Part shown: positions 29,045-49,909 of the stretch, one piece after another
Layout of the letters: each line of letters starts with the position of its first letter
How positions within the stretch are numbered: the stretch's first letter is position 1
Origin: Minisyncoccota bacterium
Lineage (GTDB): Bacteria > Patescibacteriota > Minisyncoccia > UBA6257 > UBA9933
Direction of reading: 5' to 3'
Assembly (NCBI GenBank): GCA_041650415.1
Contig: JBAZLC010000002.1
Coordinates: 6,896 to 70,895 of the forward strand
DNA: 64,000 nucleotides
Position numbers and translations under genes: made by a program
Notes under the pieces: generated by a model
What the model saw: only the letters and a program-made list of their open reading frames with translations
Databases searched by the model: none
What the model was told of the DNA's origin: nothing

Positions 29045-30373
29045 TTATTCTTCGCCGTAAACGATTTCTTTTGAAGGAATAAGTTTGGGGTCCGTAGGTA
29101 AAGTGAAATGAAAAGTTGAGCCGCGGTTTATTTCCGATTCCGCCCAAATTTTTCCGCCGTGGCGGTTTATGATGTTTTTGGCGATATAAAGTCCGAGGCC
29201 CGAACCTTCGGTGGCAAATTTAACCGCGTTATCGGAACGGAAAAATTTAGTAAACAATTTTTTGACGTCTTCTTCTGGAACTCCCACGCCCGTATCTTTA
29301 ACGCTGACCTCCAAATACGGCTCGTCTTTCAATCGTTCGATTTTAACTATTACTTCGCCGTTGGCGACGTTATATTTAACGGCATTATCCAAAAGATTCG
29401 AAAGTACCATTGATATTTTTTGACGATCGATAGATAAAGCGATTGACTGATCTGCCGGCTTTTCAAGATAAATTTTTACGTTAAATTGTTTCGATAAAGG
29501 TTCCATGCCGCGGATAATGTCTTCCACAAAACTTATAAACTCGACGTTTTCGAATTGATATCCGAATTCCCCTTCTTCTATTTTTGAAACGTCGAGCATA
29601 TCGTTGATTGTTTTCATCAACTTCGTCACTGCGCCCAAGGCCGTCTCAATTATCGGTTTTTGCTCTTCGGACATTTTTTGTTTTGAAAGCTCCTCTATCG
29701 CCCAGTGAGTTGCCGTCGCCGGAGTTCTCAATTGATGAGAAGCCGTGGCAATAAATTCGGTCTTTGATTTTAAAAGTTTTATTTCGCGGGTCCTGTCACG
29801 AACGATTTTGACAAACCCCAAAAGCTGGCCGTTTAAATCGCTTATTTTGTCCGTCGCGACCCGCAAACTCAAATCGGATTCGTTAAACGAAATATCTATT
29901 ATTTGCGGATATTCTCCGGGTTCCGAACGCCTGACAACCAATGGAGCCAATGACGGGAAAATCGCCTGGCTTAATAACTTGAATTTCGGTTCACGGGCGG
30001 TCTCAGGAGCAAAATATTTATACAACACTTCATTCGCCTTAAGACCGAAAATTTCTTCCGCCGCTCTGTTAAAAATAAGAATTTTAAAATTGGGATCGTA
30101 AGCGATAACGCCGTCTTTTAAATTCGCGATAATGCTTCGTAATTCATTCCTTTCAATTTTCACTTCCAAATTGGAGCGTGCCAGCCTTAAATTATTTACC
30201 AATATTACCGCCCCCAAAACCAATAAAATCGCCAGTACCGCAAAAACCAGAAGTTGAGGCAAATAAATAAAATCAATTACAAAAAGAGCCACAAGAAACG
30301 GCAAGAAAAACCAAAATAGCCGCATTTCCGGCAATTTTGAATAAAGAGCTATTTTTTGGAAAAAACGCTTCAT
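29045..30373 (-). CDS. sensor histidine kinase (TM plus PAS plus HisKA plus HATPase)
   Basis: H-box ATASHQLRTPAT; G-box GSGLGLYIAKNIINRHGG; two N-terminal TM helices; no adjacent response regulator. Confidence 0.85.
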   Translation of the reverse strand: MKRFFQKIALYSKLPEMRLFWFFLPFLVALFVIDFIYLPQLLVFAVLAILLVLGAVILVNNLRLARSNLEVKIERNELRSIIANLKDGVIAYDPNFKILIFNRAAEEIFGLKANEVLYKYFAPETAREPKFKLLSQAIFPSLAPLVVRRSEPGEYPQIIDISFNESDLSLRVATDKISDLNGQLLGFVKIVRDRTREIKLLKSKTEFIATASHQLRTPATATHWAIEELSKQKMSEEQKPIIETALGAVTKLMKTINDMLDVSKIEEGEFGYQFENVEFISFVEDIIRGMEPLSKQFNVKIYLEKPADQSIALSIDRQKISMVLSNLLDNAVKYNVANGEVIVKIERLKDEPYLEVSVKDTGVGVPEEDVKKLFTKFFRSDNAVKFATEGSGLGLYIAKNIINRHGGKIWAESEINRGSTFHFTLPTDPKLIPSKEIVYGEE

Positions 30374-31572
30374 TGTAATTCCAGAACGTACAACTTATTG
30401 TCGTATCTATTCATGAAAAATAATTTCCCGTCGGTAAATTTAAGATTAACCGCGTCTATTGCCGCAGCGCTGCCATCCAAAATTCTCTCAAAAGCATTTT
30501 GCATTATGTCTATTTGATAAATCGAATCAATGAAGTAAACCGCTTTTTTAAAATAGTCGTCGGGCAAAGCCGATTTATCGGGAATACTCTGAGGAATAGC
30601 GCAATAAATTTTCGGATCGGAAACAAAACATTTTTCCGGCAAAGTGGTAAATTCTAAACTTGCCTTAACTTCTCCTTGCTCACCTATTAAATTCAAAATT
30701 CTGTTTCTTCCTTCAAGAGTAGTTGAAAATTGCAAACCCATTTTACCGTCAGAAGACCAATTTACCGCCAATCCTTCTTTTTCCCCCGTGAGCAGACTTA
30801 AAGTCTTTTTGGCGACGTCAACCGCCCAAATTGAAGCTGAATAAAAAGCCGACGCCTTAGGGACTAATGTTATTTTATTTTGAGAAACCCAATTTAAATC
30901 AAAATCTTGTTGATAAATTGAAAGTAAGGTCGCCGGTTTTTGTTTTAAATCAACCAAACTTTTTGTTATTAAATCGCTCTTATTTAAATCTTTGGCATTT
31001 GCCAGAAAATAAGCGATTTTTTTGCCGTCCGGAGAAAAATCGGCAGCAGTTATTTTATCGGGTAAAGATTCAAAAATATTATTTTCGGAATTATAAACGG
31101 CGAATTTAAACGTGCCGGAATCATTGCTTTTAATAATCACTCTTTTGCCGTCGAACGACGACTTTAATGATTGAAAATTATCTATCGGAGCCGAAGTAAG
31201 CGCTTCATCCGCGCCATCGGCTTTTACTTTATAAATTAATCCATCGCTGCCAATATAAAATACGCCGCTCCCCTGAACCATTTGAGTTGAAGACGCGGTC
31301 TGCGTTGAAGTTGAAATTGCGGAATTAAAAACCCAATAACCGTAAATTGTCTTATCGCTTATAATACTCAATTTTGAAGCGGCAGGCACGCCCGAAACCG
31401 AACTCGCGGAACCATTTACCGAAACTGATTGGCCGTTAACCGGATTTTCCGAAGAAATATTCGCGGGCGGATTCAAAATGGCGCCTGTTTTTTGCCAAGC
31501 GAAATAAATTCCCACCCCTAGAGCAATAACGGACAAAACCACCGCTATAATAATTATTGTTTTCTTACTCAT
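30370..31572 (-). CDS. membrane-anchored beta-propeller-like protein (TolB/WD40-like), hypothetical
   Basis: N-terminal TM; repeated SPDGKKIAYF/SSDGKM-like blades; 4-nt overlap with the HK gene. Confidence 0.4.
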   Translation of the reverse strand: MSKKTIIIIAVVLSVIALGVGIYFAWQKTGAILNPPANISSENPVNGQSVSVNGSASSVSGVPAASKLSIISDKTIYGYWVFNSAISTSTQTASSTQMVQGSGVFYIGSDGLIYKVKADGADEALTSAPIDNFQSLKSSFDGKRVIIKSNDSGTFKFAVYNSENNIFESLPDKITAADFSPDGKKIAYFLANAKDLNKSDLITKSLVDLKQKPATLLSIYQQDFDLNWVSQNKITLVPKASAFYSASIWAVDVAKKTLSLLTGEKEGLAVNWSSDGKMGLQFSTTLEGRNRILNLIGEQGEVKASLEFTTLPEKCFVSDPKIYCAIPQSIPDKSALPDDYFKKAVYFIDSIYQIDIMQNAFERILDGSAAAIDAVNLKFTDGKLFFMNRYDNKLYVLELQ

Positions 31573-31576: not shown

Positions 31577-32425
31577 TTATGATTTTACTAAAATATCCCA
31601 GTGATCGCTTTCCAGAGCATAAACCGCGCCGGAAGGCGAAACGTATTGCGCCGCTCCATCACTGGTTCTATCCGCTATTTTTGAAAAATTTTTCGTTATG
31701 TAATTATTAAGATTGGCGTTTAATCTCAAATCAACTTTATAGCCGTTACAATGGCTGTAAATTCCCCCCGCGTGAACGGTACCGCATCCTTCAGTACCGG
31801 CCGTAACAAAAACATTGCCGCTTCCAACATTTGGAGCCAAAGACAAAACTTCATTTATTGTTGTTTGTTGGACACCGTTTAAATCAACGCAATTTTGCGC
31901 CGTACCTGCCGGACAAATTGATTTGACGCCTATCCCGGATGAAGCGAGTTCTTGCCTGGATTCTTCTTCTGATAATCCTCCGGCTGCGTAAGCCGAAGAA
32001 GTTAAATTAACCGACGTTGGAACTAATAATTTATTGGGATTTTGAAGTTTTATTAAATCCGGATTAATGGTATTAAGAATAAGATAAGCTCCTAAAAGCA
32101 AAATTACTCCCCAAATTGCCGCCCAAATCCATTCCATGGCATCTTGCTTTGTCGAAATCGCACCCGAAACCGTCCATAAAACCGCGCCGTAAACCAAAAC
32201 TCCCAAGGCTGCTCCACCAACCACGCCCAAAGCGATTCTATAGAATCGCGAAACGAAATCCGCGGGGCTGGTTGCTCCAGCCCAAGGATATTTATATTGC
32301 AAATCTATTTGTGAAGGCGTAAGCACTTTAAGAGAGGAAGACTCCTGGGCGAAAGAATAAATTGGCGCGGAAAAAACAATCAAAACCGCGAATATTAAAA
32401 TAGAAATATTTAAAGTTTTTTTCAT
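31577..32425 (-). CDS. VirB2/TrbC-like double-TM module fused to a peptidase-M15 (VanY/LAS)-like cell-wall hydrolase domain
   Basis: Signal peptide, then two hydrophobic helices (ALGVVGGAALGVLVYGAVLWTVSG ... WAAIWGVILLLGAYLIL) in a T-pilin-like arrangement. C-terminal SHCNGYKVDLR (SxHxxGxAxD-like) and ESDHW (ExxH) are LAS-family metallopeptidase motifs. Confidence 0.45.
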   Translation of the reverse strand: MKKTLNISILIFAVLIVFSAPIYSFAQESSSLKVLTPSQIDLQYKYPWAGATSPADFVSRFYRIALGVVGGAALGVLVYGAVLWTVSGAISTKQDAMEWIWAAIWGVILLLGAYLILNTINPDLIKLQNPNKLLVPTSVNLTSSAYAAGGLSEEESRQELASSGIGVKSICPAGTAQNCVDLNGVQQTTINEVLSLAPNVGSGNVFVTAGTEGCGTVHAGGIYSHCNGYKVDLRLNANLNNYITKNFSKIADRTSDGAAQYVSPSGAVYALESDHWDILVKS

Positions 32426-32430
32426 TTTAT

Positions 32431-33141
32431 TTATTTTATCGTTAAATTAATTACTTGACTCGCCGACTCAAGTGTTTTTGTAATATTATTCATAATAACC
32501 GACAAATCTATATTCGAGCCAACCGGCATTTGAGGATCGATCTTCAAATTAAGGGTAAAGGGATCACCTTTTTGCGATTCCGGCTCCTGGCCTAAAACCG
32601 ACCACTGAACGGAAAAATTTCCACCATTATTACTATTAAAGAAAAACGGATATGTTTTAAAAATTGATTCTCCGGTTTGAATTTTTCCATCCGCATAAGG
32701 AGCATCTATCACGGCTTCCGGCCGGACAAGCGGAATAGCAATCATTTTATCTATTATCCCCTGCCCCAAGAAATCTACTATGGCGACCCTGACGCTTGTC
32801 GTTTGATCAAAATAATTCGGAGTGATAAAACTTATTTTTTTTATTCCCAAACCGTTATTTTCGTTTTTTACCAATTCATCGTCGACATACCAGCGAACTT
32901 TGGCCGTTGAAAGATCGACTAATTTGCCACTGGCCATCAATTCGAAACTGACGTTTATTGGAGTCGCCGCAGTCGGAAAAATTTTACCTTCGTACCAATT
33001 TGGAACGTAATTCTGCGCTTTCCAAGAAATTAAAAACTGCGGAGAAGTTTGAGCTTGGGCGAAATTAAAACATAGAACAAAAAACATAAAACATAAGACT
33101 ACCGTGACGGAAATTTTAAATTTTAAATTTAAATTTTTCAT
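32431..33141 (-). CDS. secreted hypothetical protein (signal peptide, beta-rich)
   Basis: Cleavable signal MKNLNLKFKISVTVVLCFMFFVLCFNFAQA. Confidence 0.35.
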   Translation of the reverse strand: MKNLNLKFKISVTVVLCFMFFVLCFNFAQAQTSPQFLISWKAQNYVPNWYEGKIFPTAATPINVSFELMASGKLVDLSTAKVRWYVDDELVKNENNGLGIKKISFITPNYFDQTTSVRVAIVDFLGQGIIDKMIAIPLVRPEAVIDAPYADGKIQTGESIFKTYPFFFNSNNGGNFSVQWSVLGQEPESQKGDPFTLNLKIDPQMPVGSNIDLSVIMNNITKTLESASQVINLTIK

Positions 33142-33145
33142 GTAT

Positions 33146-33535
33146 TTATTCCGCTGCAGCCGCGGTTTTTAAAGGTATTTTTCCCGTTGCCATAGAAGCC
33201 ACTTTGCCAATTTCAGGATGATTAATCATGTATATTGCTATTAACACGCCCGCTGTCTTAATCGGCAAAAAGCTTAAAAGTGGAATTACATCCAATATAT
33301 TTCCGGCAATAATTGAAATTTGTTTTCTAAAACCCATTCCCCCTTTCATTATAAGCCAAAATTCCGTAATGGCAAAAACCGAAAAACTTATAATTGGAGC
33401 CATTAGAAACATGACCACGCCAATAGCCGGAATTAGAGCCAAAAAATTAAATACAATATCAACAATATCGGCGAATAAATTCAGTAAAACCATTAAAAGC
33501 GCTTCCACTAATGAAATTTTCTTTTGATTATTCAT
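33146..33535 (-). CDS. small polytopic membrane protein, hypothetical
   Basis: 129 aa, 3-4 TM helices; overlaps the virB4 stop by 8 nt. Confidence 0.35.
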   Translation of the reverse strand: MNNQKKISLVEALLMVLLNLFADIVDIVFNFLALIPAIGVVMFLMAPIISFSVFAITEFWLIMKGGMGFRKQISIIAGNILDVIPLLSFLPIKTAGVLIAIYMINHPEIGKVASMATGKIPLKTAAAAE

Positions 33536-35288
33536 TTTCTTCTTTTAATAATTCCTCGGGATTTGTCGTAATTACTTTGTTTTCAAAATAAGAAGCGATT
33601 ATTTGAATCGCCACGTGTTTTAAACCGGCGAAAAACAATCCTTCGCCGACATTGGCTTCAAGTAATAATTGTTTTTCCGATTGGGAAAGATTGAAAGTCT
33701 TGGCAATAGTGTCTATGCCGACGGGCGCCTGCTTGAGTAAAAGCTGAAGTGCCGAATTGGAAATAATTGGCCGGCCCTGGGGCGATTCCAAAAAGTCTTC
33801 CACGTTCTGGGTAATCGTGGTAAGACCGAGATAATATTTCCGGCAACGCTTCGCCATAAAAGAAAGGAAGTTTGCGCTATCGGGATATTTCATCAGCCAC
33901 CATGCCTCGTCTATAAGCATTATTCTCTTCTTTAAGTCGGCTCTGATAAGATTCCAGATAAAATTCAAAACAATATACATCGCGATAGGCCGAAGCCCCT
34001 CTTCCAAATCGCGGACCGAGAAAACGATTAAACGGTTTTTTATGTCGACGTTAGTCGGCTTATTCGTAAAACCCGCGTAACTTCCTTTGGTAAATCTTTC
34101 AAGGCGTTTCGCTAAAGTTCTTCCTCCTTCTGTGCTTTCCAAAACAATTTGAAAATCTTCAAGTAGAGGCGCTTCAAGTTCCATAAAATTCGGCTGGTCG
34201 GGAGTAATATTACGCGATTCGTAAGTGGCGATTATGGCGCTGTCTAAAAGTGCTTCTTCTTCCGGGGTAACGGCGCCAAGCATTAATTTAATTAAACCGG
34301 CAAGATTAAGAATATGCGATTTAAAAATATCTGCCGGATCTTCGCCCGGAGGAACTATGGGAATGTCAAACGGATTTATCTGGCTTTCCGACGTCAGAGA
34401 AATTTTGAAAAAGCTTCCCCCAACCGACTCCGCCAATTTTTGGTATTCGTTTTCCGGATCTATTATTAGAACGTCTATCCCCATCATTAAATAACGCAAA
34501 ACTTCAAGCTTGCAAGCGTAAGATTTTCCGGAACCGGACTTGGCAAAAACCACCGAATTAGCGTTTTCCAAAGAAAATCTGTCGAAAATAACCAAAGTAT
34601 TATTGTGGCGGTTCAAACCATAAAGAATTCCATCATCGGAAGTAAGATCCACGGAAACAAACGGAAACATCGAAGAAGCGGGCCCGGAATTCATTGGAGA
34701 ATGTATTAAAAGCTTATCGGTGTTTAAAGGCAAAGTAGAAGCAAAACCGTCAGTCTGTTGAAACATCGCCGGCTTGATATAGACAAGCTGCGATTCAAAT
34801 AAAGAGTTTATTTTTTCTTCAAGTTTGTTTAGGGCGTCCAAATTATCCGCGTAAAAAGTGGCATAAACTCCAACGTTAAATAATTTCTCCCGCGCCTGCT
34901 GAAGCTGGTCTCTTAATCCTTCGATGTCCTGATAAGCCGTTTCAATAACCGGATCCCGGACCAAGCCTTTTTCCTGGCGCTCCATTAATTGAGCTTCAAC
35001 TTGAGCGGTTTTCTTGCGTAAGTTTCTCAAAGCGATGGCAGTATCAACCGGATGAACGAAAATAGAAATATCTATAAGCTCGGGTAAATTAATAATCGAA
35101 TTAAACCAGCCACTTGAAAGATAGCGCGGATAATTGAAAATAAAAACCGTTTTGACATATTTATCTCCCAATTTCAAATAGCCCGGCTCCACTTGCATGC
35201 CCGCCGGAGCAATAACATTTTGAATTTCACTTTCTCCTTTATTGTTTTGTAAATCTCTGGGAATCATGTTTATTTTATTTTTTTTCAA
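33528..35288 (-). CDS. virB4: VirB4/TrbE/TraE-family conjugative ATPase, C-terminal (ATPase) portion
   Basis: Walker A VFAKSGSGKSYACK; Walker B MLIDEAWWLM (the DEAW motif diagnostic of VirB4/CagE); C-terminal pattern. Track start at 35288 is TTG; an in-frame ATG lies at 35266-35268. Confidence 0.7.
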   Translation of the reverse strand: MKKNKINMIPRDLQNNKGESEIQNVIAPAGMQVEPGYLKLGDKYVKTVFIFNYPRYLSSGWFNSIINLPELIDISIFVHPVDTAIALRNLRKKTAQVEAQLMERQEKGLVRDPVIETAYQDIEGLRDQLQQAREKLFNVGVYATFYADNLDALNKLEEKINSLFESQLVYIKPAMFQQTDGFASTLPLNTDKLLIHSPMNSGPASSMFPFVSVDLTSDDGILYGLNRHNNTLVIFDRFSLENANSVVFAKSGSGKSYACKLEVLRYLMMGIDVLIIDPENEYQKLAESVGGSFFKISLTSESQINPFDIPIVPPGEDPADIFKSHILNLAGLIKLMLGAVTPEEEALLDSAIIATYESRNITPDQPNFMELEAPLLEDFQIVLESTEGGRTLAKRLERFTKGSYAGFTNKPTNVDIKNRLIVFSVRDLEEGLRPIAMYIVLNFIWNLIRADLKKRIMLIDEAWWLMKYPDSANFLSFMAKRCRKYYLGLTTITQNVEDFLESPQGRPIISNSALQLLLKQAPVGIDTIAKTFNLSQSEKQLLLEANVGEGLFFAGLKHVAIQIIASYFENKVITTNPEELLKEENE

Positions 35289-35898
35289 CCGTTGATGGAT
35301 TATATAAATTGTAAAATAATTCCGTAAGCTCTTCTTCTGTCAACGCCACCGCTCTTAAGCCTATCTGAGTCAAACCGCTGATTACCTGGTCCGTTCTCTG
35401 ATTTAATTGCGTCATTTTTTGCTCAAAACTTTCTTCTATGCCCGCTTTCTTGTTCTTGCCGCCAAAACCAAAAACATCCAATAGTTTTTTCCCTCCGCCG
35501 GGAATTATTATCGGATCATAAGGCACAACGGCGAAAAAATTTTTTGCCATAACGGCGTTTGATTCTATAAAAGAACGGATAAATTCCGAATATTCCGATA
35601 TTTGATTTTTAAGAAGTTCATTTTGTTCCGCGGAATGCCGCTCTCCGAGTTTATTTAAATAACTTTCTATATTCATTTTGCGCGAGCGGATTACCACCTG
35701 AATCGAAAAATCCAGAGTATTTAAAAAATTCTGATAAGCGTAAATTATGATATTCTGCTCTTCTTCCGATTTAAGTTCGAAATTTATTCCCGAAACCATA
35801 AGCACGCGCCGCAACGAACCGTTCTTTAAAACCACCGCGTCGCCGCGAATATCCTTAATATCGACAAATTGTTGCGTCGGTTGAGCTTCTTTCGCCAT
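35275..35898 (-). CDS. virB4: VirB4 N-terminal domain ORF (split from the ATPase portion)
   Basis: DIKDIRGDAVVLKNGSLRRVLMVSGINFELKSEEEQNIIIYAYQNFLNTLDFSIQV matches the N-terminal domain pattern of Gram-positive-type VirB4. Stops inside an A8 run; 207 + 586 aa equals the length of an intact VirB4. Confidence 0.55.
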   Translation of the reverse strand: MAKEAQPTQQFVDIKDIRGDAVVLKNGSLRRVLMVSGINFELKSEEEQNIIIYAYQNFLNTLDFSIQVVIRSRKMNIESYLNKLGERHSAEQNELLKNQISEYSEFIRSFIESNAVMAKNFFAVVPYDPIIIPGGGKKLLDVFGFGGKNKKAGIEESFEQKMTQLNQRTDQVISGLTQIGLRAVALTEEELTELFYNLYNPSTVEKK

Positions 35899-35938
35899 AT
35901 GATTAATTATATCTTTTTTAACCCTTGATTACTAATAT

Positions 35939-36445
35939 TTATTTGTAATCAACGCGTCTTGCCGCTTCTTTTTCTCCGGTTAATTTTCTGAAAACCTGAA
36001 TTTTTTCTTTTGTTCCGCCATTTAAGGAAGTTTGCGGGCTTTTTTCTCTTTTTGGAATCGGATTTTTAGTAGTCATTAAATCCTGCCATAATCTTTTAAT
36101 TGAAGGCGCTCCGGCAAGAAAATCTTTCAAAGTTTCTCTTTTTTCCATTGTTAAAGATTGGCTTTCCGTTGTTTTTTGCCAAAGGTAAAATTTCGGTCCC
36201 CAAAAAAAACCAAAAGCATAAAGCAATATTTTTGGCAACGGCTGACCGTTGTATTTAACAAATGCCAAAGAAACGGAAACCGCCGTTAAAATCGCCGTTA
36301 CCATAATCCAAAGCCAGAGCGCCAAAACAAAATAAAGTGCGAAGCTCATGCCCGCGGCAACGGCCAAATAAAGAAATTGCTTCAATGTTAACGGCCCAAC
36401 TATTTTATTTTCAATTTCTATAAATTGAGGAATTTGAAACTGCAT
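35939..36445 (-). CDS. VirB3/PrgI-like small two-TM membrane protein (candidate)
   Basis: 168 aa, two adjacent TM helices, located immediately upstream of virB4 as VirB3-like genes usually are. Confidence 0.35.
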   Translation of the reverse strand: MQFQIPQFIEIENKIVGPLTLKQFLYLAVAAGMSFALYFVLALWLWIMVTAILTAVSVSLAFVKYNGQPLPKILLYAFGFFWGPKFYLWQKTTESQSLTMEKRETLKDFLAGAPSIKRLWQDLMTTKNPIPKREKSPQTSLNGGTKEKIQVFRKLTGEKEAARRVDYK

Positions 36446-36454
36446 GTTTATATT

Positions 36455-37684
36455 TTATTTAAACATCCCAAGGTCAACCATTTCTTCCGATTCTTCTTTT
36501 TTCCCGGTTTCCGGATTATTTTCTTCGATTTTTTCTTCTGTTTTCGCTTCCGGCTCCGCTTCAATCTTTATTTCTTTAACGTCTTCTTTTACCTCTTGCA
36601 AATTTTCGGGCACGACTTCACTTACCGGTTCAGCCGGCATTTTAACGACTTCAAATTTTTCAAATCCCGCAGTTTTTTCTTCCGCTAATTGACTAATATT
36701 TACTTTTTCTTGCACCGGTTGTTCCGGAACCTCGGAATAATTAACCACTTTCACGGCTTCAAAAACCTTATTTTCAGCCGGCGTCTCTTCAACAACGGCT
36801 TCCTTTTCCGTTGAAACAAGTTCTTCTTTTTTAATTTCCGGTTTATATTCCTCTTTTTTAGCGGGAGCGGGCTGATCTTCCATTATTTTAAATTCTTCGC
36901 CGATTTCCAATTCCGCTTTTACGGGCGCTTCTTCTTTTTTAAATTCATCTTTGCTCCGCAAAAAATTAAACATCCCGCCCAATGATTTTAATTTTCCGGA
37001 AAGCGGTTTAAAACCGACTTCTTGGTGGATAATCAACGGACCTTCGTTTTTAGGCGTTTCAACCGCGGCTTCCGCTGGCATGGCCGGAGCTGACGCCGGA
37101 GTTTCAAATGAAATCGTCGTCGGTTCTTCTATTTTTTTCTCTTCTTTCTCCATTAAAACGGGCTCTTCGATTTTTTTAACGGTAAAGGCCACGTTTTCAA
37201 CGGGAACAACTTTTTCAACAACGGGTTCCATTCCTTTTTTTACCGAAAGATCTATTTTATTTTCATCTTCAACGATTTTAAAAGACGATTCTTCCGTTTT
37301 ATTCCTTAAATCAAGGGTTGGAGACGTCTGACCTTCTTCGGTTTCCTCTTTTTCAGACGGAGAAGGCTGATAAATTTTTTCCAAATCATTTTTAAATTGA
37401 GAAAATATTTTTCTGTTTATTTCAACCGCTATCGCATCGGCGATTTCGGCGTTTATATTTAACGCCTCGCGGATTTCCGAAGCGAAATCCTCGGGATGAA
37501 TAAAACCCATTAATACTTCTCCTGCCAACTCGGCAATTTTTTGAATTTTATCTTCGGCCAAATGTTGATTCTCGCAAACACGCCATAATATTTCGGCGTT
37601 ATAATCGGAAAAAATAGCCGTTTTTAGATTATCCGGCAAAGTGTCCCATCTTGTTAACGCTTGTTGTTGAGAAATTTTAATCAT
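36455..37684 (-). CDS. acidic E/K/P-rich low-complexity protein with a ~100-aa globular N-terminal domain
   Basis: 409 aa; composition-biased repeats (EEPV..., KKEE...). Confidence 0.4.
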   Translation of the reverse strand: MIKISQQQALTRWDTLPDNLKTAIFSDYNAEILWRVCENQHLAEDKIQKIAELAGEVLMGFIHPEDFASEIREALNINAEIADAIAVEINRKIFSQFKNDLEKIYQPSPSEKEETEEGQTSPTLDLRNKTEESSFKIVEDENKIDLSVKKGMEPVVEKVVPVENVAFTVKKIEEPVLMEKEEKKIEEPTTISFETPASAPAMPAEAAVETPKNEGPLIIHQEVGFKPLSGKLKSLGGMFNFLRSKDEFKKEEAPVKAELEIGEEFKIMEDQPAPAKKEEYKPEIKKEELVSTEKEAVVEETPAENKVFEAVKVVNYSEVPEQPVQEKVNISQLAEEKTAGFEKFEVVKMPAEPVSEVVPENLQEVKEDVKEIKIEAEPEAKTEEKIEENNPETGKKEESEEMVDLGMFK

Positions 37685-37689
37685 AATTT

Positions 37690-39693
37690 TTATTGTTTTT
37701 CAGCTTCATGTTCTTCCGAAGTCCCGCTATAACCACTGCCAAACAAACTGCCGCCAAAATTTTTACGGCTGCCATAAAGCCCGCGCGCCCAATTTCTGAA
37801 AGAAGGATTTAAATTCTTATCAATATATTCCAATTTTTCTTTAACGCCCTTTTTCCTGACTTCTTCATCTCTTATATTTGCTTTCTCAAACGTATCAATA
37901 TAATTATCGACTTCGTCTTGGAAATTAACGACGTCTTCGCCTTTTAGTGAAGACCTAGCTTTTGATATCGCGCCGGGATGAGCATCAAATATTGATTTGA
38001 CAACTTCGCTTCTGATATTTTCATGTTCTGTGTCAGTTAAGCCATACGAGGCTTTTTTACCCAAAATATTCCCTTGAAGCTTATCGTAATCTTTAATTGA
38101 ATGACTCATTCTGAATTTCTTTGTCGCTGCTTGAATGGAAATCGCTTTACCATCTTCATCTTTTCCTGTTAACATCGCAGTATTAAAGCCCATGGTTTTC
38201 TCCATATCGCCATATTCCTTACCCTTACCATAACTCGCGAAAATCTTTTTCATCTTCGGGTCTTTAATGTATTTCGCCGCGTCAGGAACCATATCCAAAT
38301 TTTTATTCTTGGTTAATCTGGACAAAGCCGCAACTCTTTCATCGTTTGTCATGGTAGATACTCTTAATGCCAGCTGCTTATCGGAAAGATTTTTTTGTCT
38401 GGCTTCCGCTTGGCTGGTTAATTTCTCTCCTTGTTGAACGCCGACGCTTCCCAATCTATTACCCAGCCTACCCAAAGTATTTCTTGCAAGAAATCCTCCC
38501 TCGGCGCCGATTTTCTGCATTCCTTCAATCGCTCTTTGTCCGATAGCCGAACGCGCCGGCAAAGTTCCAAGCCGTATCCCCTTTCTTCCCGCCCAACCGC
38601 CAAACGCCTTGCCCGTGCCTTGCGCCCAACCCATAGCGGTTGAAGCAAAAGTAATTCCCATTTTATTCGCCGCGAACAAACCTCCAAGAAGCAGTCCCGT
38701 CGTAATTATAATTTGAAGAACATGATCAAAAAAACCTTTGTTTAAAATCATTGAATCGCTGAAAGCTTTTTGAATTGCCGCGTTTTCTTGCTGTCCAATA
38801 TTAGAAATGCCATTTAATTGATTGCCGCTTGATATAACCAAAACTATAAAGAATAAAACTATGGGCGCAAAAAACGTCCAACGGAGAAAATTACTCCACC
38901 ACTCCGACCAATATTTTGAAGTTCCCGGGAAAATCCACAAAAGCCATACTATCGGCATAATAATCAGCAAAATGCCGAGAGTAACCGCCCGAATCAAAAG
39001 CATTATTGTTAAAGCAAAAAAAGTTAAAATTATTATAAATATAAAAACAATCGCGAATAAAAGACTTGCCATGTATTGAAAAATATAACTGAAAAGACCG
39101 GTTGCAATCTTCCACAATGACGCATCTTTTACCTGAACAAGTCCCTGTGGATTAAGAATTCCCATTAAGCCGTCGGATATGCTTTTACCGTTTAATCCCT
39201 GGAGGAAAAAGTCCGTGAAAATATTTGAAACCGAAATAAAAGCTCCGGCAATAGTTAAGCTGAAATTAACCAACAACGCGGCAACGATTAATTTCCAAAG
39301 AGTTTGCTTCATCGCGTAGCTTTGGACTCTGAAAATCGTGGCAAACGCCATTACTATAATCGCGAAAACAAATCCCAAATTCGCAAAACTTATCATAACA
39401 TTGGAACCGGTTTGCACGATCGGGAGACTTATTACGCTTTTTCCTATGTTAATTGAAAAATTAAGAACTGCCGCCAGCATTGCTAAAATTCCGGAAGAAA
39501 CGGTTAATAAAAAATTTAACAAAACTGGCCCTGAATCAACGGAGCCATCCGTTACTTTAGTCAAAGCCACATCGTTTGTATGGTTATAGTCAGCTGGAGA
39601 AACAGGCTGGGCAAAAACACAATTGGCGGTCAAAAACATCGCACCGAAAACCAAAAGCGTTAAAATTATTTTATTTTTGTTTTTTATTTTCAT
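37690..39693 (-). CDS. VirB6/TrbL-like polytopic membrane protein with a C-terminal soluble domain (candidate)
   Basis: Signal peptide, 6 or more TM helices, Gly-rich segment, ~250-aa hydrophilic C-terminus; size and topology resemble PrgH/TcpH-type VirB6 homologues. Confidence 0.4.
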   Translation of the reverse strand: MKIKNKNKIILTLLVFGAMFLTANCVFAQPVSPADYNHTNDVALTKVTDGSVDSGPVLLNFLLTVSSGILAMLAAVLNFSINIGKSVISLPIVQTGSNVMISFANLGFVFAIIVMAFATIFRVQSYAMKQTLWKLIVAALLVNFSLTIAGAFISVSNIFTDFFLQGLNGKSISDGLMGILNPQGLVQVKDASLWKIATGLFSYIFQYMASLLFAIVFIFIIILTFFALTIMLLIRAVTLGILLIIMPIVWLLWIFPGTSKYWSEWWSNFLRWTFFAPIVLFFIVLVISSGNQLNGISNIGQQENAAIQKAFSDSMILNKGFFDHVLQIIITTGLLLGGLFAANKMGITFASTAMGWAQGTGKAFGGWAGRKGIRLGTLPARSAIGQRAIEGMQKIGAEGGFLARNTLGRLGNRLGSVGVQQGEKLTSQAEARQKNLSDKQLALRVSTMTNDERVAALSRLTKNKNLDMVPDAAKYIKDPKMKKIFASYGKGKEYGDMEKTMGFNTAMLTGKDEDGKAISIQAATKKFRMSHSIKDYDKLQGNILGKKASYGLTDTEHENIRSEVVKSIFDAHPGAISKARSSLKGEDVVNFQDEVDNYIDTFEKANIRDEEVRKKGVKEKLEYIDKNLNPSFRNWARGLYGSRKNFGGSLFGSGYSGTSEEHEAEKQ

Positions 39694-39718
39694 TAGAATA
39701 AATTAAATAATGCCGGTA

Positions 39719-41293
39719 TTACGGATTAGTCGATGTCGCGCTTGTCGATGTCGCGCTTGTCGCCCTGCACGAGCTAAGCGCCGCCAAAGCAAGTCTTTCC
39801 TTATTTGCTTTATCGGTAACCTCAAGAGCAGCAGCGGATCTATCAGAACCGGTAGTAAGCGGCTCCAAATATTGTTGATTAGAATATATGCCTATAAATT
39901 GAGAATAAACTCCTTGGGCCTGCGATATTTCAACGGAATCCACGGTAATTGAAGTTGCCGAATTTGTATATTTCGAATAAATGGTATCGATTTTATCAAG
40001 CGCGTTATTGGATTGCTGAACTCTTAATGCGAAATCATCCACCTTCCCTTTTAAAATTGATTGGGCGGCATTGGATTTGGCAATGGCGCTATCAGTACTG
40101 GTTGCGTTTAAAACGCTCAATATGTCATTGCCGTTCTCGGTATCAATGGCTATCCCGCAAGATCTTGATTTTATTTCCTGAAGCGCGCTTATTACCTGGG
40201 AATTAGAATCAAATGCTTTGCTGTATTGTGATACCAAGAAACTCCATTCACTGAGAAACGGATTTATTCCATCTATCATCATTTTTTGATCGGATTTAAG
40301 ATTTTGAATTATGGCGTCTTGATACTGCCCGGTATAGCCCGCCGCGGAATTCTCATTGGAAGAATTTGAATTCGCTATCAAACTAAGTCCTTCTTTGGTT
40401 AAACGGGTAATAAGAGCGTTTATTATCGCTGACATATACGATTGAACGTTAGCCGCCCATTGGGAATCGGAATTAATCGCCGTTTTAACCGCTTCACCGA
40501 CCACGGCGCCCGGAGTGACATTTTCCATGTCTTTAGCAAGACAATAATTACCCTTAGAATCTTTTTGATACATTGACGGCGGCGTATTATCTTCAAAAGC
40601 ATCAAGTCCATACCCGCCGCCTTTACACCTTTTAACCGACAAAAATCCACTTCCGGCTTGAACTTCTTTTGACGCGGCATCCACCGCTTTAGCGGCTTCA
40701 GCGTTAAGATTGGCGCTAACTTGCAAAGCTACTCCAAAATAATTACCCTGCGACTGCATTGTTTCGGTATAACCTACCCAGCCGCCTTTGTTAAAATCTT
40801 TATAAAAATCGTCTATGTTTTTCACAATGCCGTCTAAAGTGCATTTTACTTGCTGACCGAATTTCGGTGCCGGCGTAAGCCCCAATAAAATCTGCGCTTT
40901 AAAAGGCGAACAAATAAAAGAAGCATTTGTTTTAAGCACCACGTCTCCAATTGCCGCGTTGGCGGAACTCCTTAAAAACCCGCTAAAATCAGTGACAAAT
41001 TGAGGCTTACCGCCGCCCTGAATCCAGGCAATCGTCTGATCTGTCATATAATCCATAATGCGCTTGACTATCGCGTCACGGAGAGCTTTCAAAGCTTCAT
41101 CTTTCGCCCATTGTGCAACTTGTACTGCCCAATTACCAAGTGCCAAACCAAAAGCTTGAGGATCAAATACAACATCCTCAATTCCCCAAACCGCTAAAGC
41201 TTTTTTTGGAGATTGAAAAATATTAGAAACACCAAAAATAAGTGTAAAAATTATTAGAAAAAGTATTGTTTTTTTTATAAAACTGTTTTTCAT
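39719..41293 (-). CDS. secreted hypothetical protein with a C-terminal (ATSTS)n repeat
   Basis: Signal peptide MKNSFIKKTILFLIIFTLIFGVSNIFQSPKKALA; 524 aa; C-terminus encoded by a 15-bp tandem repeat. Confidence 0.4.
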   Translation of the reverse strand: MKNSFIKKTILFLIIFTLIFGVSNIFQSPKKALAVWGIEDVVFDPQAFGLALGNWAVQVAQWAKDEALKALRDAIVKRIMDYMTDQTIAWIQGGGKPQFVTDFSGFLRSSANAAIGDVVLKTNASFICSPFKAQILLGLTPAPKFGQQVKCTLDGIVKNIDDFYKDFNKGGWVGYTETMQSQGNYFGVALQVSANLNAEAAKAVDAASKEVQAGSGFLSVKRCKGGGYGLDAFEDNTPPSMYQKDSKGNYCLAKDMENVTPGAVVGEAVKTAINSDSQWAANVQSYMSAIINALITRLTKEGLSLIANSNSSNENSAAGYTGQYQDAIIQNLKSDQKMMIDGINPFLSEWSFLVSQYSKAFDSNSQVISALQEIKSRSCGIAIDTENGNDILSVLNATSTDSAIAKSNAAQSILKGKVDDFALRVQQSNNALDKIDTIYSKYTNSATSITVDSVEISQAQGVYSQFIGIYSNQQYLEPLTTGSDRSAAALEVTDKANKERLALAALSSCRATSATSTSATSTNP

Positions 41294-42120
41294 AAATCAA
41301 TTCCTGTTGCTAATTTATAATATTCTTTTCCTATTTCAATTTCTTCATTTATCAGACCCGATACCATTTCAAAAAATAAACCCGCTTTTACCGGATCGTT
41401 CTGGATGTCGCCTATGCCCGAATAAATTATTCCCGCCTTCTTAAAAAATCTCAGATATCTTTTATGAAGCTCTAACTGATCCGTGGGAACGGACACGATC
41501 ATAAATCTGTTATAAAGATTTTGATATGTTTTTACTAATTGGTTTAATCCCGAAAAATCGCTTAATAATATCGCTTTATCAACGGCGCTTGTCGGGTTTT
41601 TATAAGCATCCGTTTCGTTTTGGGAAAAAACAATAAACACTCCCTCCAAATAATTTTTCTTTGCTTCTTTTGAATTATCCTGTAAAACTTTTATGGCTTT
41701 TTCGTCTATTGATAAATCATAATAAGATAAAGGATCTTTAATTCCGCTTATCGCGCTCTGAATTGCCTCTTTGTTATTGGGGTCTTCGGGATCAAAAACG
41801 GTCGAACTGTCTCCACTTTGAAACATATTTTCCATATCGCCAAACATTTGACTGGCAACCAATTCGGAAAAATTGATCTGCTTTGAAGAATTTAAAAAAT
41901 TCGATGATTCGTTCCCGACCGAGTCTCCCGTTAATATCTGTTCTTTTGCTTTTTCAATCCATTTAATCGGACTATTTTCCAATATTTGCTTGCTTAATTC
42001 CGAAATTCCGCCGTTTTCGCTCGAAGCCGCCGCGGGACCGGAATTTTTAAAAATAAAATAGGAGCTTACTATGCCTGCTAAAATTACCAAAACTACCGCC
42101 GTGTTTTTGATAGGATTCAT
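41290..42120 (-). CDS. bitopic membrane protein (VirB8-like topology, hypothetical)
   Basis: N-terminal TM then ~250 aa extracytoplasmic; 4-nt overlap with the downstream gene. Confidence 0.35.
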   Translation of the reverse strand: MNPIKNTAVVLVILAGIVSSYFIFKNSGPAAASSENGGISELSKQILENSPIKWIEKAKEQILTGDSVGNESSNFLNSSKQINFSELVASQMFGDMENMFQSGDSSTVFDPEDPNNKEAIQSAISGIKDPLSYYDLSIDEKAIKVLQDNSKEAKKNYLEGVFIVFSQNETDAYKNPTSAVDKAILLSDFSGLNQLVKTYQNLYNRFMIVSVPTDQLELHKRYLRFFKKAGIIYSGIGDIQNDPVKAGLFFEMVSGLINEEIEIGKEYYKLATGIDL

Positions 42121-42168: not shown

Positions 42169-44583
42169 CTATTCCTGAAACGGACAGATTCCCGAATGCT
42201 TCGCGAGCGTCCAAATCGACAATGTCGTTGTGTGTGGATTTCCAACGCCCTCGACGGAGTTAATCCAGGCGCCCGATTTTAATTGGTTATCCATTATATT
42301 TTTAATCCAACTCTCTTTCACTAAGTTTTTAAACCCGTAATTTTCAAGAAAAGCCGCCCGCTCCACGTACAAATCGTCGACTTTTCCGCTTTTTTCTTCA
42401 TCAGACGCCATTTTTTGCGCGGCAGTTAAAATAATTTTATCAAGATCGTATCCCTCCGCAACGCATCCGTTTTCTTTAAAAAGAACCGCCGACCAAAATT
42501 TATGAGTAAGGTCGTAACCGGTTTCGGTTTCTATATTATCAAAAGCCTTAGCGGTAAAATCTTCCCGGACCGGATACAAATCACAATAAAGCGCCTGAGG
42601 TAAAACATCATTGTAAAAAGTTTGGGGGGTTTTTAAAATCGTCAAAGCTTTATCGCTAATTTTTTTGTAATCCGCTCTATTGGAAAAAAATCTTTCGAAT
42701 ACGGGCAAATAAGAATGATTTTCAAATTCCTTTAAAATGCCTTTCCAAAAAACTTCCGCTTTCGGCGAATGGCAATATTTATCGTTTATCATTTTAATCA
42801 TCATCGGAATTCCGGGATCTGCAAAATTCTTATCGTATTGATAAAGCCAACGCCATCCCGCGACGGCCGCTTGGTTTGACCGCGCGTCAAATGAATTTGC
42901 CAAAGAAAACATCGCCGCTTCGACCGCGAAAACCGCGATAAAAATCAAATAAACGATTACTACGTATTTTTCTTTAAATTTTTCCTTATTGATGACAAAA
43001 AACAATATTATTCCGAAAACCGCCGCGGTAATCAAAGTAATTACGTTTAAATAAAAAGTCACGGGTATCAACAGTAATCCGAAAAAAGCGAGCACGCCCA
43101 CAATCGCTTTCCCGTTTTTCGGTCCAAAAAAAGCCGGCAATGTTTTAACTCCCTCTTTCGCATCACCCTCGATATCTTTTAAATTCTTTATTTCAGCCAA
43201 AAGAAAAATTATCAGAAATATTCCCAGAGCGTATTTCACCGGAAAATTTCTTAAATTTTCCGTTCCCGCAACCATAAAAAATCCCATTAATACCGCGATT
43301 AATCCGTTAATGGCCGTAATAAAAGAAGAAGCGCCTAAAAATCTTTTGAGTCTGAGCGGCGGCGCGGAATACAAATGATAAACGATTAAAAATAAAACCG
43401 TAAAAGTAAACAAGTAAAATCCTCCCAAAAATGCGGAGCTTAATGCCAGAAAAAGAAACAGATATTTCAAATTTCTCCATTCTTCGTTGGTGAAAGATCC
43501 TCTTATCAACGGCCTGTCGGAATTGGAAATTTTATCGGTTTCCAAATCCGCTTCGTCATTTTCCCAAACCGAAAAGGCCCATGAAAAAATCAGACATAAA
43601 AACAAGCAAGCCAAAGATGTAAAATCAAACAAGGAGCCTATCGGATTGTAACCGGCAAATTTCATCCCCAGATAAATTCCCACCGAAGCCATCAGAGAAT
43701 AATGAATTATTCTTGATAGCCGGAAATTTTTTATTACGGCAATAAATTTTTTCGCATCGTACAGCCACAGCCACCATCCAAGAAGCAGAATGTCCGTTAT
43801 TAGAAAAATTATCGAAAGAGTCGCGGAATATTGGTTATTTATTTTTTGGGACTCGGTTAAACCGTTAATTCCGTTTTCAACGACAAAAGTCCGGTCTTTG
43901 GTAATTGCGTCCGCCGGCTCTTGCCGGTAATAAAAATAATTAGTTGTCTGATAATTAATTTCCCGATAGTCATTTGTAATTGCATTATCCGCCGCAAAGA
44001 TATAAACCGGCATGCTTATAAAAAAGAACGTAACGGCATAAATTGCCAGAACGCAAAAGAAGGAACGCCAAATGTTTTTTGTTTTATAAAAAACGTAATA
44101 ACCCAACCCCAGCAAACCCAAAGCAAGTTCTATCTTCATGCCAAGTGTGGCGCCGGTAGTTCTTCCGGCGATGCCGCCGAAAAAAGAAAGGAATGAATGC
44201 ACTAAATCGGAAAAATCGCCGACTATGAAAACATAACGAACCTGATTTCCTTTTTGAATAATAATGTCTAAAATCGGCGATAAAATTACCAACCATGAAA
44301 ATATTGCTCCCAGCCGGCTCACTTTTTCAATTTTCTCTCCCGTGAATAATCTTAAAAAGATAAATACCGAAATAAAACCCATAAAAAACCACAGCGGATA
44401 ATGAAAATACGTATCAATCACGCCCATTATGCGGTTCCCGTTGTCAAAATTGGCGTAATTTTCCAAAAACCCCCTTAAAAAAGAAACAATATATATAAGT
44501 AAAAATACCACCCCAAAAGATATCTGCTTATTATTTTCTATTTTTTCTATAAGCGCTTTTAACGGATTTAACGTCATTTTCAA
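42169..44583 (-). CDS. large polytopic membrane protein containing a UbiA-family prenyltransferase domain, with extra N-terminal TM region and C-terminal soluble domain
   Basis: NDEADLETD (NDxxDxxxD) plus SDRPLIRG (NRPLxSG-like), and second motif KDIEGDAKEGVKTLP (DxExDxxxGxKT), in mid-protein. ~14 TM helices. C-terminal domain has a QLKSGAW (QxxxGxW-like) motif. Confidence 0.55.
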   Translation of the reverse strand: MKMTLNPLKALIEKIENNKQISFGVVFLLIYIVSFLRGFLENYANFDNGNRIMGVIDTYFHYPLWFFMGFISVFIFLRLFTGEKIEKVSRLGAIFSWLVILSPILDIIIQKGNQVRYVFIVGDFSDLVHSFLSFFGGIAGRTTGATLGMKIELALGLLGLGYYVFYKTKNIWRSFFCVLAIYAVTFFFISMPVYIFAADNAITNDYREINYQTTNYFYYRQEPADAITKDRTFVVENGINGLTESQKINNQYSATLSIIFLITDILLLGWWLWLYDAKKFIAVIKNFRLSRIIHYSLMASVGIYLGMKFAGYNPIGSLFDFTSLACLFLCLIFSWAFSVWENDEADLETDKISNSDRPLIRGSFTNEEWRNLKYLFLFLALSSAFLGGFYLFTFTVLFLIVYHLYSAPPLRLKRFLGASSFITAINGLIAVLMGFFMVAGTENLRNFPVKYALGIFLIIFLLAEIKNLKDIEGDAKEGVKTLPAFFGPKNGKAIVGVLAFFGLLLIPVTFYLNVITLITAAVFGIILFFVINKEKFKEKYVVIVYLIFIAVFAVEAAMFSLANSFDARSNQAAVAGWRWLYQYDKNFADPGIPMMIKMINDKYCHSPKAEVFWKGILKEFENHSYLPVFERFFSNRADYKKISDKALTILKTPQTFYNDVLPQALYCDLYPVREDFTAKAFDNIETETGYDLTHKFWSAVLFKENGCVAEGYDLDKIILTAAQKMASDEEKSGKVDDLYVERAAFLENYGFKNLVKESWIKNIMDNQLKSGAWINSVEGVGNPHTTTLSIWTLAKHSGICPFQE

Positions 44584-44614: not shown

Positions 44615-45388
44615 TTAAATCAATTTTTTAATTTGTTCAATATTTAAATTTTGCGGTCTGTCCCCCGGCTTAATTCCGGTCTTCAGCAAAGTTTTTAAAA
44701 TTTCCTCTTTTTTACCCGATGGCGACAAATTATTAATAATCGTTTTCCTCGGCTGCTTGAATAAAACTTTAATAAATGCGTAGTAATCACTATCCTTAAT
44801 TTTTATTTCTTTATTTTTAATTCTTAATCTTATTATCGCGCTATCCACTTTCGGCACGGGCACAAAATCTTTCTTGGAAATATAACTTATTATTTTCGGG
44901 TCCGCCCAAAATTGAACGCTTGCCGCCAATAAATTCATATCGGGCGCTTGAGCGCAAATTCTTTGGGCCACTTCTTTTTGAATCGTTAAAACCGTTAGAT
45001 CGGGCTTTGTTTTTAATTCGCTTATAATTCTCAACAAATATCCGGTAATGTAATAAGGAATATTACCGGCAATTTTATAGGATTTAAGATCTAAGACATA
45101 AGATTTAAGAACTTTTAAGGCGTCTCCTTCAACTATTTCGATTTTTTTGTCTTCGGAAAATTCTTTCCTTAGAAATTCCGCCAGTTTTACGTCTTTTTCA
45201 ATCGCTATAATTCTTATTTCTTTACTCTTATTTCTTATTTCTCTTGTAAGCTCTCCATGACCCGGGCCGATTTCAATTACAGTATCGCCTTTTTTTAATT
45301 CCAAAACCTCCGCGATTTTCCGCAGCTTGGATTTATTTTTTAAAAAGTTTTGCCCCAGGCTCTTCTTGGCACGGATTCTTTTAAACAT
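44615..45388 (-). CDS. rsmA: 16S rRNA (adenine1518/1519-N6)-dimethyltransferase
   Basis: SLGQNFLKN and VIEIGPGHGELT motifs. Confidence 0.9.
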   Translation of the reverse strand: MFKRIRAKKSLGQNFLKNKSKLRKIAEVLELKKGDTVIEIGPGHGELTREIRNKSKEIRIIAIEKDVKLAEFLRKEFSEDKKIEIVEGDALKVLKSYVLDLKSYKIAGNIPYYITGYLLRIISELKTKPDLTVLTIQKEVAQRICAQAPDMNLLAASVQFWADPKIISYISKKDFVPVPKVDSAIIRLRIKNKEIKIKDSDYYAFIKVLFKQPRKTIINNLSPSGKKEEILKTLLKTGIKPGDRPQNLNIEQIKKLI

Positions 45389-48043: not shown

Positions 48044-48172
48044 CCTACAAGTAAAATTCCTGACGGAATTTTCTCGCAGGCCGCCCCTCGCCCCGCTTCG
48101 CGGGGCTGCGGTCTTCGAATCCTCCACTAATTCATCAATTTTTGGCATACAAATATGCCAAAAATTTATGAG

Positions 48173-48255: not shown

Positions 48256-48266
48256 ATTTTAAAAAA

Positions 48267-49764: not shown

Positions 49765-49848
<84 letters not shown>

Positions 49849-49906: not shown

Positions 49907-49909
49907 ATT

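Follow-up and report, generated by a model that had tools for sequence, protein, structure and literature searches.

A chromosomally encoded type IV secretion cluster of Patescibacteria, very probably serving host interaction, with a pilin-like protein fused to a LAS-fold domain

Between positions 31577 and 42120 of a 64,000-nt stretch of a Minisyncoccota genome (assembly GCA_041650415.1, contig JBAZLC010000002.1; the whole stretch is called the window hereafter) lies a run of minus-strand genes that a first-pass annotation had read as a type IV secretion system (T4SS)-like block. That reading holds: the T4SS components found there go far beyond chance. The same annotation counted twelve genes within these limits. 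We found ten open reading frames (ORFs) arranged back to back, and twelve is reached only by adding the genes for a beta-propeller protein and a histidine kinase, both of which lie outside these coordinates. The spacing of the GenBank locus tags fits ten called genes, and database proteins identical to those of the block bear the tags WC461_01120 to WC461_01160 on an 88-kb contig (Candidatus Paceibacterota bacterium). The tight junctions and unbroken minus-strand run described earlier are indeed present, but the many overlaps of 4–8 nt are reduced to three, which measure 4, 14 and 8 nt; elsewhere adjacent ORFs are separated by 4–9 nt, except for two wider gaps of 25 and 40 nt. From upstream to downstream, with lengths in amino acids (aa), the ten genes and the two that follow them are:

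41290–42120, minus strand: 276-aa bitopic acidic protein with one N-terminal transmembrane helix, isoelectric point 4.8
39719–41293, minus strand: 524-aa N-terminally anchored protein with a conserved Cys-containing domain and a C-terminal bundle of long helices
37690–39693, minus strand: 667-aa VirB6/TrbL-like polytopic membrane protein ("extended VirB6")
36455–37684, minus strand: 409-aa acidic protein (23% D+E) without a transmembrane helix, predicted to be cytoplasmic
35939–36445, minus strand: 168-aa small membrane protein of the PrgI/VirB3 family
35275–35898, minus strand: 207-aa TrsD-like protein, the detached N-terminal domain of VirB4
33528–35288, minus strand: 586-aa VirB4 ATPase without the N-terminal domain
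33146–33535, minus strand: 129-aa small polytopic membrane protein with 3–4 hydrophobic segments and no signal peptide
32431–33141, minus strand: 236-aa predicted secreted protein with a signal peptide
31577–32425, minus strand: 282-aa protein combining a signal peptide with a VirB2-like pilin hairpin, a disordered linker and a Hedgehog/DD-peptidase (LAS)-fold domain
30370–31572, minus strand: 400-aa membrane-anchored TolB-like beta-propeller protein
29045–30373, minus strand: 442-aa PAS-HisKA-HATPase histidine kinase, its gene overlapping the neighboring one by 4 nt

The shared orientation of these genes is weak evidence of linkage because, counting non-nested ORFs of 100 aa or more, about 58 of the 65 in the window lie on the minus strand. 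The GC skew is negative across the whole window, and the window should contain no replication origin, since the cumulative skew is monotonic. In a scan, promoter-like and terminator-like sites were no more frequent than in shuffled sequence, so operon limits could not be set in this way. An operon is not definable here from sequence alone; conserved synteny is the real evidence of linkage.

Such synteny, which the first-pass annotation had proposed to check, was found in related genomes of the Candidate Phyla Radiation. A scan of a genome collection with VirB4 yielded at least 583 confirmed loci, and the synteny counts given here refer to the best 80 of them, compared with the window proteins by tblastn. 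All 80 (VirB4 identity 48–83%) belong to metagenome-assembled genomes (MAGs) of Patescibacteria. The best of them (83–62%) come from Wolfebacteria, Harrisonbacteria, Jorgensenbacteria and Patescibacteria MAGs, and the Wolfebacteria are the nearest relatives of the source organism, itself a Candidatus Paceibacterota MAG. Dozens of species-level genomes share one fixed order: ksgA, the 276-aa protein, the 524-aa protein, VirB6, the 409-aa protein, PrgI, TrsD, VirB4, the 129-aa protein, the 236-aa protein, the pilin and the propeller. This order is kept in Wolfe-, Harrison-, Jorgensen- and Giovannonibacteria and in other MAGs, and it holds across lineages whose VirB4 proteins are just 50–60% identical.

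Within the 80 loci, a syntenic VirB4 was counted in all 80, TrsD in 78, PrgI in 71 and VirB6 in 53. The remaining members are the pilin (35 loci), the 236-aa protein (35), the 524-aa protein (31), the 409-aa protein (31), ksgA (30), the 129-aa protein (19) and the 276-aa protein (13, close relatives only). The propeller gene directly follows the pilin gene in 36 loci. Together with the propeller, the 276-, 524-, 409-, 129- and 236-aa proteins make six further proteins that occupy a fixed order across many lineages. An earlier claim had placed both the propeller and the histidine kinase in the unit. By its conservation, the predicted propeller does qualify as a member of the cluster, as much as the pilin does. 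The histidine kinase, on the other hand, is probably a neighbor rather than a T4SS component because it occupies this position in only 11 of the 80 loci, all of them close relatives.

The motor of the system is readily recognized. The 586-aa protein matches NCBIfam NF045971 (CD1110-family VirB4-like conjugal transfer ATPase) with an E-value of 5.5e-113 and 378.7 bits, above the curated cut-off of 325, and it matches Pfam P-loop_TraG at 1.1e-27. It contains the Walker A motif GSGKS and the Walker B motif DEAW, the latter retained in 75 of 78 VirB4 relatives. The VirB4-family ATPase with these two motifs that the first-pass annotation had named is thus confirmed, and profile searches of the block proteins matched the VirB4 and PrgI families. 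The TTG start of the ATPase is uncertain, with an ATG seven codons downstream as the alternative.

The match of this ATPase spans only positions 184–732 of the NF045971 profile. The 207-aa protein encoded upstream matches VirB4_plasma at positions 100–220 (8.7e-12) and the CD1110 VirB4 profile at positions 2–106 (1e-5), both in NCBIfam, as well as TrsD/TraD at 6e-10, which is under the TrsD family cut-off; together, the two proteins tile the VirB4 profile. A stretch of eight A residues marks the point where their ORFs meet. We considered a sequencing error or a programmed frameshift at this stretch as a means of joining them and rejected both: among 78 related loci, 74 encode the two in distinct ORFs, frequently out of frame with each other or separated by a gap, and four have them fused. 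Because of these 74 loci, we regard the split of VirB4 into a TrsD-like N-terminal domain and an ATPase as native. The TrsD-plus-VirB4 arrangement is the commonest T4SS feature of Patescibacteria (PMC12102498). The four loci with a single fused ORF include L018, L024 and L025. In L005, L007, L012 and L013, some 460–500 nt separate the stop codon of the TrsD-like ORF from the VirB4 match, leaving room for an extra small gene.

The 168-aa protein matches Pfam PrgI (PF12666) with an E-value of 6.1e-11 and 43.2 bits, against a cut-off of 27. Its hydrophobic stretch extends over residues ~22–63 when the sequence is read by eye; a hydropathy script flags a single window at 35–53. A PrgI/VirB3 protein had been placed directly upstream of the ATPase. 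The identity is correct; the position is not, as the 207-aa TrsD-like ORF intervenes. The order of a VirB3-like gene, TrsD/TraD, VirB4/TraE and, further downstream, a cell-wall-enzyme-like gene is presumably that of pGO1 and pIP501. We assign the predicted T4SS to the MPF-FATA type because its VirB4 passes the CD1110 cut-off, PrgI is present, and the order VirB3-TrsD-VirB4 is as in pGO1/pIP501.

The 667-aa protein has the topology of VirB6 that had been ascribed to it: six hydrophobic helices follow the signal peptide, and a basic, cytoplasmic C-terminal tail of ~320 aa completes the chain. Among 33 homologues, 11 match Pfam TrbL/VirB6 (PF04610; best E-value 2.2e-5). The database protein identical to it carries a precomputed hit to PF19590, which we take to be TrbL_3, as do about half of the listed homologues. 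A search of the VirB6 profile against PDB sequences returned nothing relevant. We accept this protein as a putative divergent, extended VirB6.

The other components are less easily placed. Neither the 276-aa nor the 236-aa protein has a match in Pfam, NCBIfam or PDB sequences, and no family match in Pfam or NCBIfam was obtained for the 409-aa and 129-aa proteins. The 409-aa protein consists of an N-terminal domain of ~100 aa and a long E/K/P-rich tail; the 129-aa protein has no similarity to the pilins described below. The predicted model of the 524-aa protein is a helical bundle with generic matches only, none of them NTF2-like, and its N-terminal half is of low confidence. The propeller protein has an N-terminal transmembrane helix and weak Pfam hits to PD40 and DPPIV_N, and a phmmer search of the PDB matched PkwA WD40 (9.5e-4) and TolB (0.012). 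The histidine kinase, which is followed by fpg, matches HATPase_c (2.3e-30), HisKA (4e-12) and PAS (6e-8) in Pfam.

The pilin-like protein has an unusual composition. Its signal peptide is followed by a two-helix hydrophobic hairpin (residues ~54–120), a disordered linker (~121–150) and a compact C-terminal domain (148–282). By topology, this last domain would face the cell exterior because a cleaved signal peptide precedes two membrane passes. The domain contains the motifs H225-x6-D232 and E272-x2-H275-W-D277 along with H218, and we take the spacing of H225-x6-D232 and E272-x2-H275 to be that of the VanX-type SxHxxGxAxD and ExxH motifs. Eight residues (H218, H225, G228, D232, E272, H275, W276 and D277) are invariant across 101 family members. 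The features by which the LAS/Hedgehog-DD-peptidase superfamily is recognized, namely the fold and the zinc ligands supplied by H-x(3-6)-D and a subsequent His, are all found in this domain. At the family level, the link of the hairpin to VirB2-type pilins is secure: among 101 proteins containing the domain, 72 have a T4SS_pilin match (best 1.5e-14) and 12 a TrbC/VirB2 match. Two of the 101 also contain an SLT transglycosylase domain.

This family is large. A profile of the C-terminal domain detected 2599 cluster representatives (clusters at 50% identity) with E-values of at most 1e-3, 1591 of them at 1e-10 or below, and the fusion family is spread over thousands of Patescibacteria protein clusters. 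Among the 150 matches listed, most are ~200–350 aa long with the domain at the C-terminus. We also took a census of the related loci by tblastn of the two halves of the window protein and an ORF-by-ORF table. A pilin-module gene lies downstream of virB4 in 41 of the 80 loci, and 35 pilin-module ORFs continue for 95 aa or more beyond the module at the C-terminus. These extensions vary in type: the domain of the window (5 loci by tblastn), others with H-x2-G-x3-D...H-x-H motifs, Cys-rich ones, and none at all. In one database relative (P0030), a YkuD L,D-transpeptidase domain is joined to the same pilin module. What the putative pilin carries at its C-terminus appears to be exchangeable between lineages. 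Extensions of up to 461 aa, often with 10–24 Cys residues, occur at L002 (12789–13652) and in L020, L048, L051, L058, L061 and L070. In the literature on the Patescibacteria T4SS, we found no mention of pilin-enzyme fusions or of the propeller.

A second group of pilins lies just past the window end. For the region beyond that end we used sequence L081, which is identical to the window tail. At 408–2438 of L081 (equivalent to window positions ~71.3–73.3 kb), ~29 kb from the virB4 cluster, five T4SS_pilin genes form an array encoding proteins of 135, 112, 143, 126 and 96 aa without extra domains. Their best identity to the operon pilin module is 31% over 49 aa. This array agrees with the "VirB2 arrays" of the literature.

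We surveyed the surroundings with a Pfam scan that covered nearly all window ORFs of at least ~180 aa and the predicted genes in 10 kb of sequence flanking the window on either side, ~84 kb in total. It revealed no relaxase, VirD4/TraG coupling protein, TcpA/FtsK-like protein, T4SS-DNA_transf domain, or plasmid or phage module. Thus, the absence of a coupling protein and relaxase from the cluster and its vicinity, claimed earlier, extends over the 64-kb window and 10 kb on each side. The setting is a housekeeping, chromosomal one in a reduced Patescibacteria genome. The window contains a type IV pilus cluster, MacB/HlyD efflux genes, tgt, fpg, ksgA (44615–45388), comM, parA, parB, relA/spoT, topA, dprA and glycolysis genes, and the flanks add RNase J, SecG, a XerC/D-type recombinase, DNA ligase and others. 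The same flanks recur across species, with ksgA upstream and the propeller, histidine kinase and fpg downstream.

Several other features of the window and its flanks were noted. Between ksgA and the cluster (42169–44583) lies a gene for an 804-aa protein with a UbiA domain at residues 317–530; it is present in 1 of the 80 loci and looks like a lineage-specific insertion. The type IV pilus cluster (4624–14499) comprises PilD (6561–7469), an N_methyl pilin (7482–7922), PilC (7958–9166), a PilT-like ATPase (9171–10241), PilB (10256–11986) and PilO, PilN and PilM (12291–14499). Several small ORFs in it are likely pseudopilins, one of them with a weak N_methyl motif, and another N_methyl pilin, this one bearing a LamG domain, is encoded at 61462–62694. 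Within 4–14 kb of the secretion cluster are comM (Mg-chelatase-like; 45381–46928), parA/parB (49875–51823) and dprA (55739–56617). The listed GTG start of a pseudouridine synthase ORF (49051–49842) overlaps a same-strand tRNA-Leu(CAA) (49765–49848), and the real start is probably downstream; the plus-strand ORF at 48168–48551 overlaps a tRNA-Leu(GAG) and is probably no gene. About 8–10 kb before the window start, in sequence L082 (217–2072), a bAvd-family gene stands beside the gene for a 482-aa protein that has both an FGE-sulfatase domain and an N_methyl motif. bAvd is an accessory protein of diversity-generating retroelements, and the arrangement hints at such an element diversifying a pilin-like surface protein.

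How does this locus compare with known systems? It belongs to the already published T4SS of Patescibacteria, and the missing relaxase and the host-interaction reading are also in print (PMC10633639; PMC12102498; PMC12857230). That system was found in 2417 of 3035 genomes and is nested in the monoderm MPF-FATA class (Quinonero-Coronel 2025, PMC12102498). According to the same study, TrsD, PrgI, VirB6 and VirB2-like pilins lie near virB4, with ksgA and replication genes nearby, and its dataset includes the closest relatives of the present organism (Wolfebacteria, class Paceibacteria). In Southlakia epibionticum, transposon sequencing showed the homologous cluster and pilins to be essential for growth on the host (Wang 2023, PMC10633639), and that T4SS has no recognizable coupling protein or relaxase (PMC10633639). 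The role of that system has been described as "completely unknown", with effector delivery and uptake as the two proposals in the literature (PMC11665869, PMC12857230). Tubes that are possibly T4SS pili have been seen at the parasite-host interface (bioRxiv 10.64898/2026.06.21.733656).

The Patescibacteria system (for example, SEML1_0006-0019 of S. epibionticum) and the locus described here have in common an MPF-FATA VirB4, a separate TrsD-like protein, PrgI/VirB3, a VirB6-like protein and VirB2-like pilins; both are chromosomal, with ksgA next door and no nearby relaxase or type IV coupling protein (T4CP). They differ in that the present locus has the Paceibacteria-type layout, with a single operon pilin fused to a LAS-fold domain, a multi-pilin array ~29 kb away rather than inside the cluster, and the propeller as a conserved member. 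The Gram-positive MPF-FATA systems (pGO1 Trs, pIP501 Tra, pCF10 Prg/Pcf, CTn2) share with it the CD1110-type VirB4, PrgI, a monoderm envelope and the lack of a VirB7/9/10 core. In contrast to them, no relaxase or T4CP was found near the present cluster, which also has no PrgB-type surface adhesin and no recognized VirB8-like protein (PrgL/TraM); it has VirB2-like pilins, which they lack, its hydrolase is not of the SLT/CHAP VirB1 type, and its inheritance is vertical and chromosomal.

T4SSs without a coupling protein or relaxase are known elsewhere, in Helicobacter pylori ComB (DNA uptake), Bordetella Ptl and Brucella VirB (protein export), and they show that both import and export are possible with such a reduced parts list. 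These three are diderm systems with a VirB7-10 outer-membrane core, related to the present one only through VirB2/3/4/6, and their functions were shown experimentally, while that of the present system is predicted. The LAS/Hedgehog-DD-peptidase group of zinc peptidases (MepA in M74; VanX/VanY and phage endolysins in M15; the Hedgehog N-domain) provides a comparison for the C-terminal domain of the pilin-like protein. In the window family, the last motif is an invariant H-W-D rather than H-x-H, the domain sits behind a T4SS pilin hairpin, its activity is putative, and it has no significant match to M15 or M74 models.

We consider it very probable that the locus encodes a chromosomal Patescibacteria-type T4SS that derives from MPF-FATA conjugation machinery, is non-conjugative and serves host interaction. 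The first-pass annotation had argued likewise for a host-interaction machine rather than a conjugative one, and we infer the same from the lack of a relaxase and T4CP in ~84 kb and from the housekeeping setting. Far more tentatively, we propose a "catalytic pilin": a VirB2-type subunit or pilus-base anchor that displays an undescribed family of LAS-fold zinc peptidases and would stand in for the missing VirB1 equivalent, possibly opening the host wall.

Several points weigh against these interpretations. A VirD4-like gene may be present in parts of the genome beyond the ~84 kb scanned. The 667-aa protein itself has no direct Pfam match, and its assignment rests on family-level and precomputed hits. 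No VirB8-like component (PrgL/TraM, NTF2-like bitopic) was recognized in the cluster, where the 524-aa protein was the candidate modeled. The hairpin of the pilin-like protein scores an E-value of 1.2e-3 and 19.3 bits against Pfam T4SS_pilin, under the cut-off of 26.6. Pfam M15 matched neither the window protein nor 21 domain sequences, 10 variant C-terminal extensions or 101 full-length relatives. The profile of the C-terminal domain had no match among PDB sequences, and its hhalign comparisons with E. coli MepK, MepA and DdpX were not significant (probability below 1% for MepK and DdpX); an alignment of its motifs on MepA and DdpX is suggestive only. Of the VirB2/TrbC-like module joined to a peptidase-M15 domain that had been proposed, the hairpin and the separate globular domain thus stand, and the M15 membership does not. 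The domain shows the right kind of fold and likely peptidase chemistry, a resemblance at the level of fold and motif. Moreover, a pilin with a globular domain of 135 aa may pack poorly in a VirB2-type filament, in which case it would be only a membrane anchor.

Three other explanations were weighed. A dedicated uptake machine is the most credible of them, although we find it doubtful. It would be a reversed T4SS, like H. pylori ComB or archaeal Ced, that imports host DNA, RNA or other macromolecules as a source of nucleotides and nutrients. Like ComB, the locus has VirB2/3/4/6 parts without a T4CP or relaxase; the idea has been raised in print (PMC11665869, PMC12857230), and host RNA serves as food for a cultivated relative (bioRxiv 10.64898/2026.06.21.733656). 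In NCBIfam, the VirB4 protein weakly matches CedB (8.5e-8) and CedD (3.9e-4), ATPases of archaeal DNA import, but these scores are tiny compared with the cut-offs (31 vs. 700 bits) and reflect the shared P-loop domain. Likewise, comM, dprA and the type IV pilus cluster are encoded in the same window, yet comM and dprA are common housekeeping neighbors whose presence is not conserved alongside the T4SS genes (5 of 80 loci for comM). None of the products of the cluster was recognized as binding nucleic acids, and in S. epibionticum natural transformation, which needs comEC, is dispensable, while the T4SS is essential (PMC10633639).

That the locus is an ordinary integrative conjugative element (ICE) or conjugation module, with its relaxase, coupling protein and oriT elsewhere on the chromosome, strikes us as very improbable. 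VirB4, TrsD and PrgI are homologous to proteins of Firmicutes conjugative plasmids and ICEs, numerous Patescibacteria genomes contain VirD4-like genes, and a T4CP gene often lies a long way from virB4 (PMC12102498). Relaxases, on the other hand, are rare, with just 109 found, in 103 of 3035 genomes (PMC12102498), and ~84 kb around the cluster held no relaxase, T4CP or FtsK-like protein. A tyrosine-recombinase gene lies ~4 kb past the window end (L081 4496–5386), but its architecture is that of XerC/XerD, and 26 kb separate it from the cluster. The GC content is flat along the window (0.36–0.43), with no island signal; neither a border integrase, a composition shift nor a variable insertion site, the marks of a mobile-element setting, was found at the locus. 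The cluster stands between the same housekeeping genes, with ksgA upstream, in dozens of species, which argues for vertical inheritance rather than a mobile island. We give still less credence to a decaying, functionless remnant of an ancient conjugation system. VirB8, VirB1, a T4CP and a relaxase are indeed missing, and VirB4 is split at a run of eight A residues. Nonetheless, that split is common to 74 of 78 relatives, every ORF is intact, the genes are closely packed, the Walker motifs are invariant, as are the peptidase residues, gene order is kept although VirB4 is only 50–60% identical, and a homologous system is essential in S. epibionticum (PMC10633639).

Under the favored interpretation of a host-interacting T4SS, a mechanism can be outlined. 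A VirB4 hexamer, acting with TrsD and docked at the membrane by VirB3 and VirB6, would pull VirB2-like pilins from the membrane, including the five short ones encoded ~29 kb away. Once assembled, they would form a tube or a short pilus that passes through the bacterium's own wall toward the host cell on which it lives. On the outer face, the operon pilin would present its zinc-peptidase-like LAS domain on a flexible linker. This domain would most likely cut the peptide links of peptidoglycan, in the wall of the cell itself or of the host, and so replace the missing VirB1 hydrolase. The propeller, the anchored 524-aa and 276-aa proteins and the secreted 236-aa protein may be parts of an extracellular scaffold or of the contact site. 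As for cargo and direction, protein export to the host is plausible at somewhat short of an even chance, uptake of host macromolecules (nucleic acids or other) is possible with lower expectation, and what is left falls to other roles.

Few machines are known to be essential for the epibiotic lifestyle of Patescibacteria, a very large and mostly uncultured group, and the T4SS is among them. The present locus adds nothing to the case for its existence. It does give a clean parts list of the Paceibacteria type, with conserved accessories: the propeller, the 524-aa Cys-containing helical protein and the small polytopic protein. The family of pilin-LAS fusions and the conserved propeller, for which we found no earlier description, are modest additions that leave the overall picture unchanged. 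Nevertheless, the pilin-peptidase fusion family, whose peptidase domain matches no Pfam model, offers a testable handle on how a tube crosses one or two cell walls. If the proposal is true, a catalytic pilin would be a possible tool for opening the host wall at the contact site.

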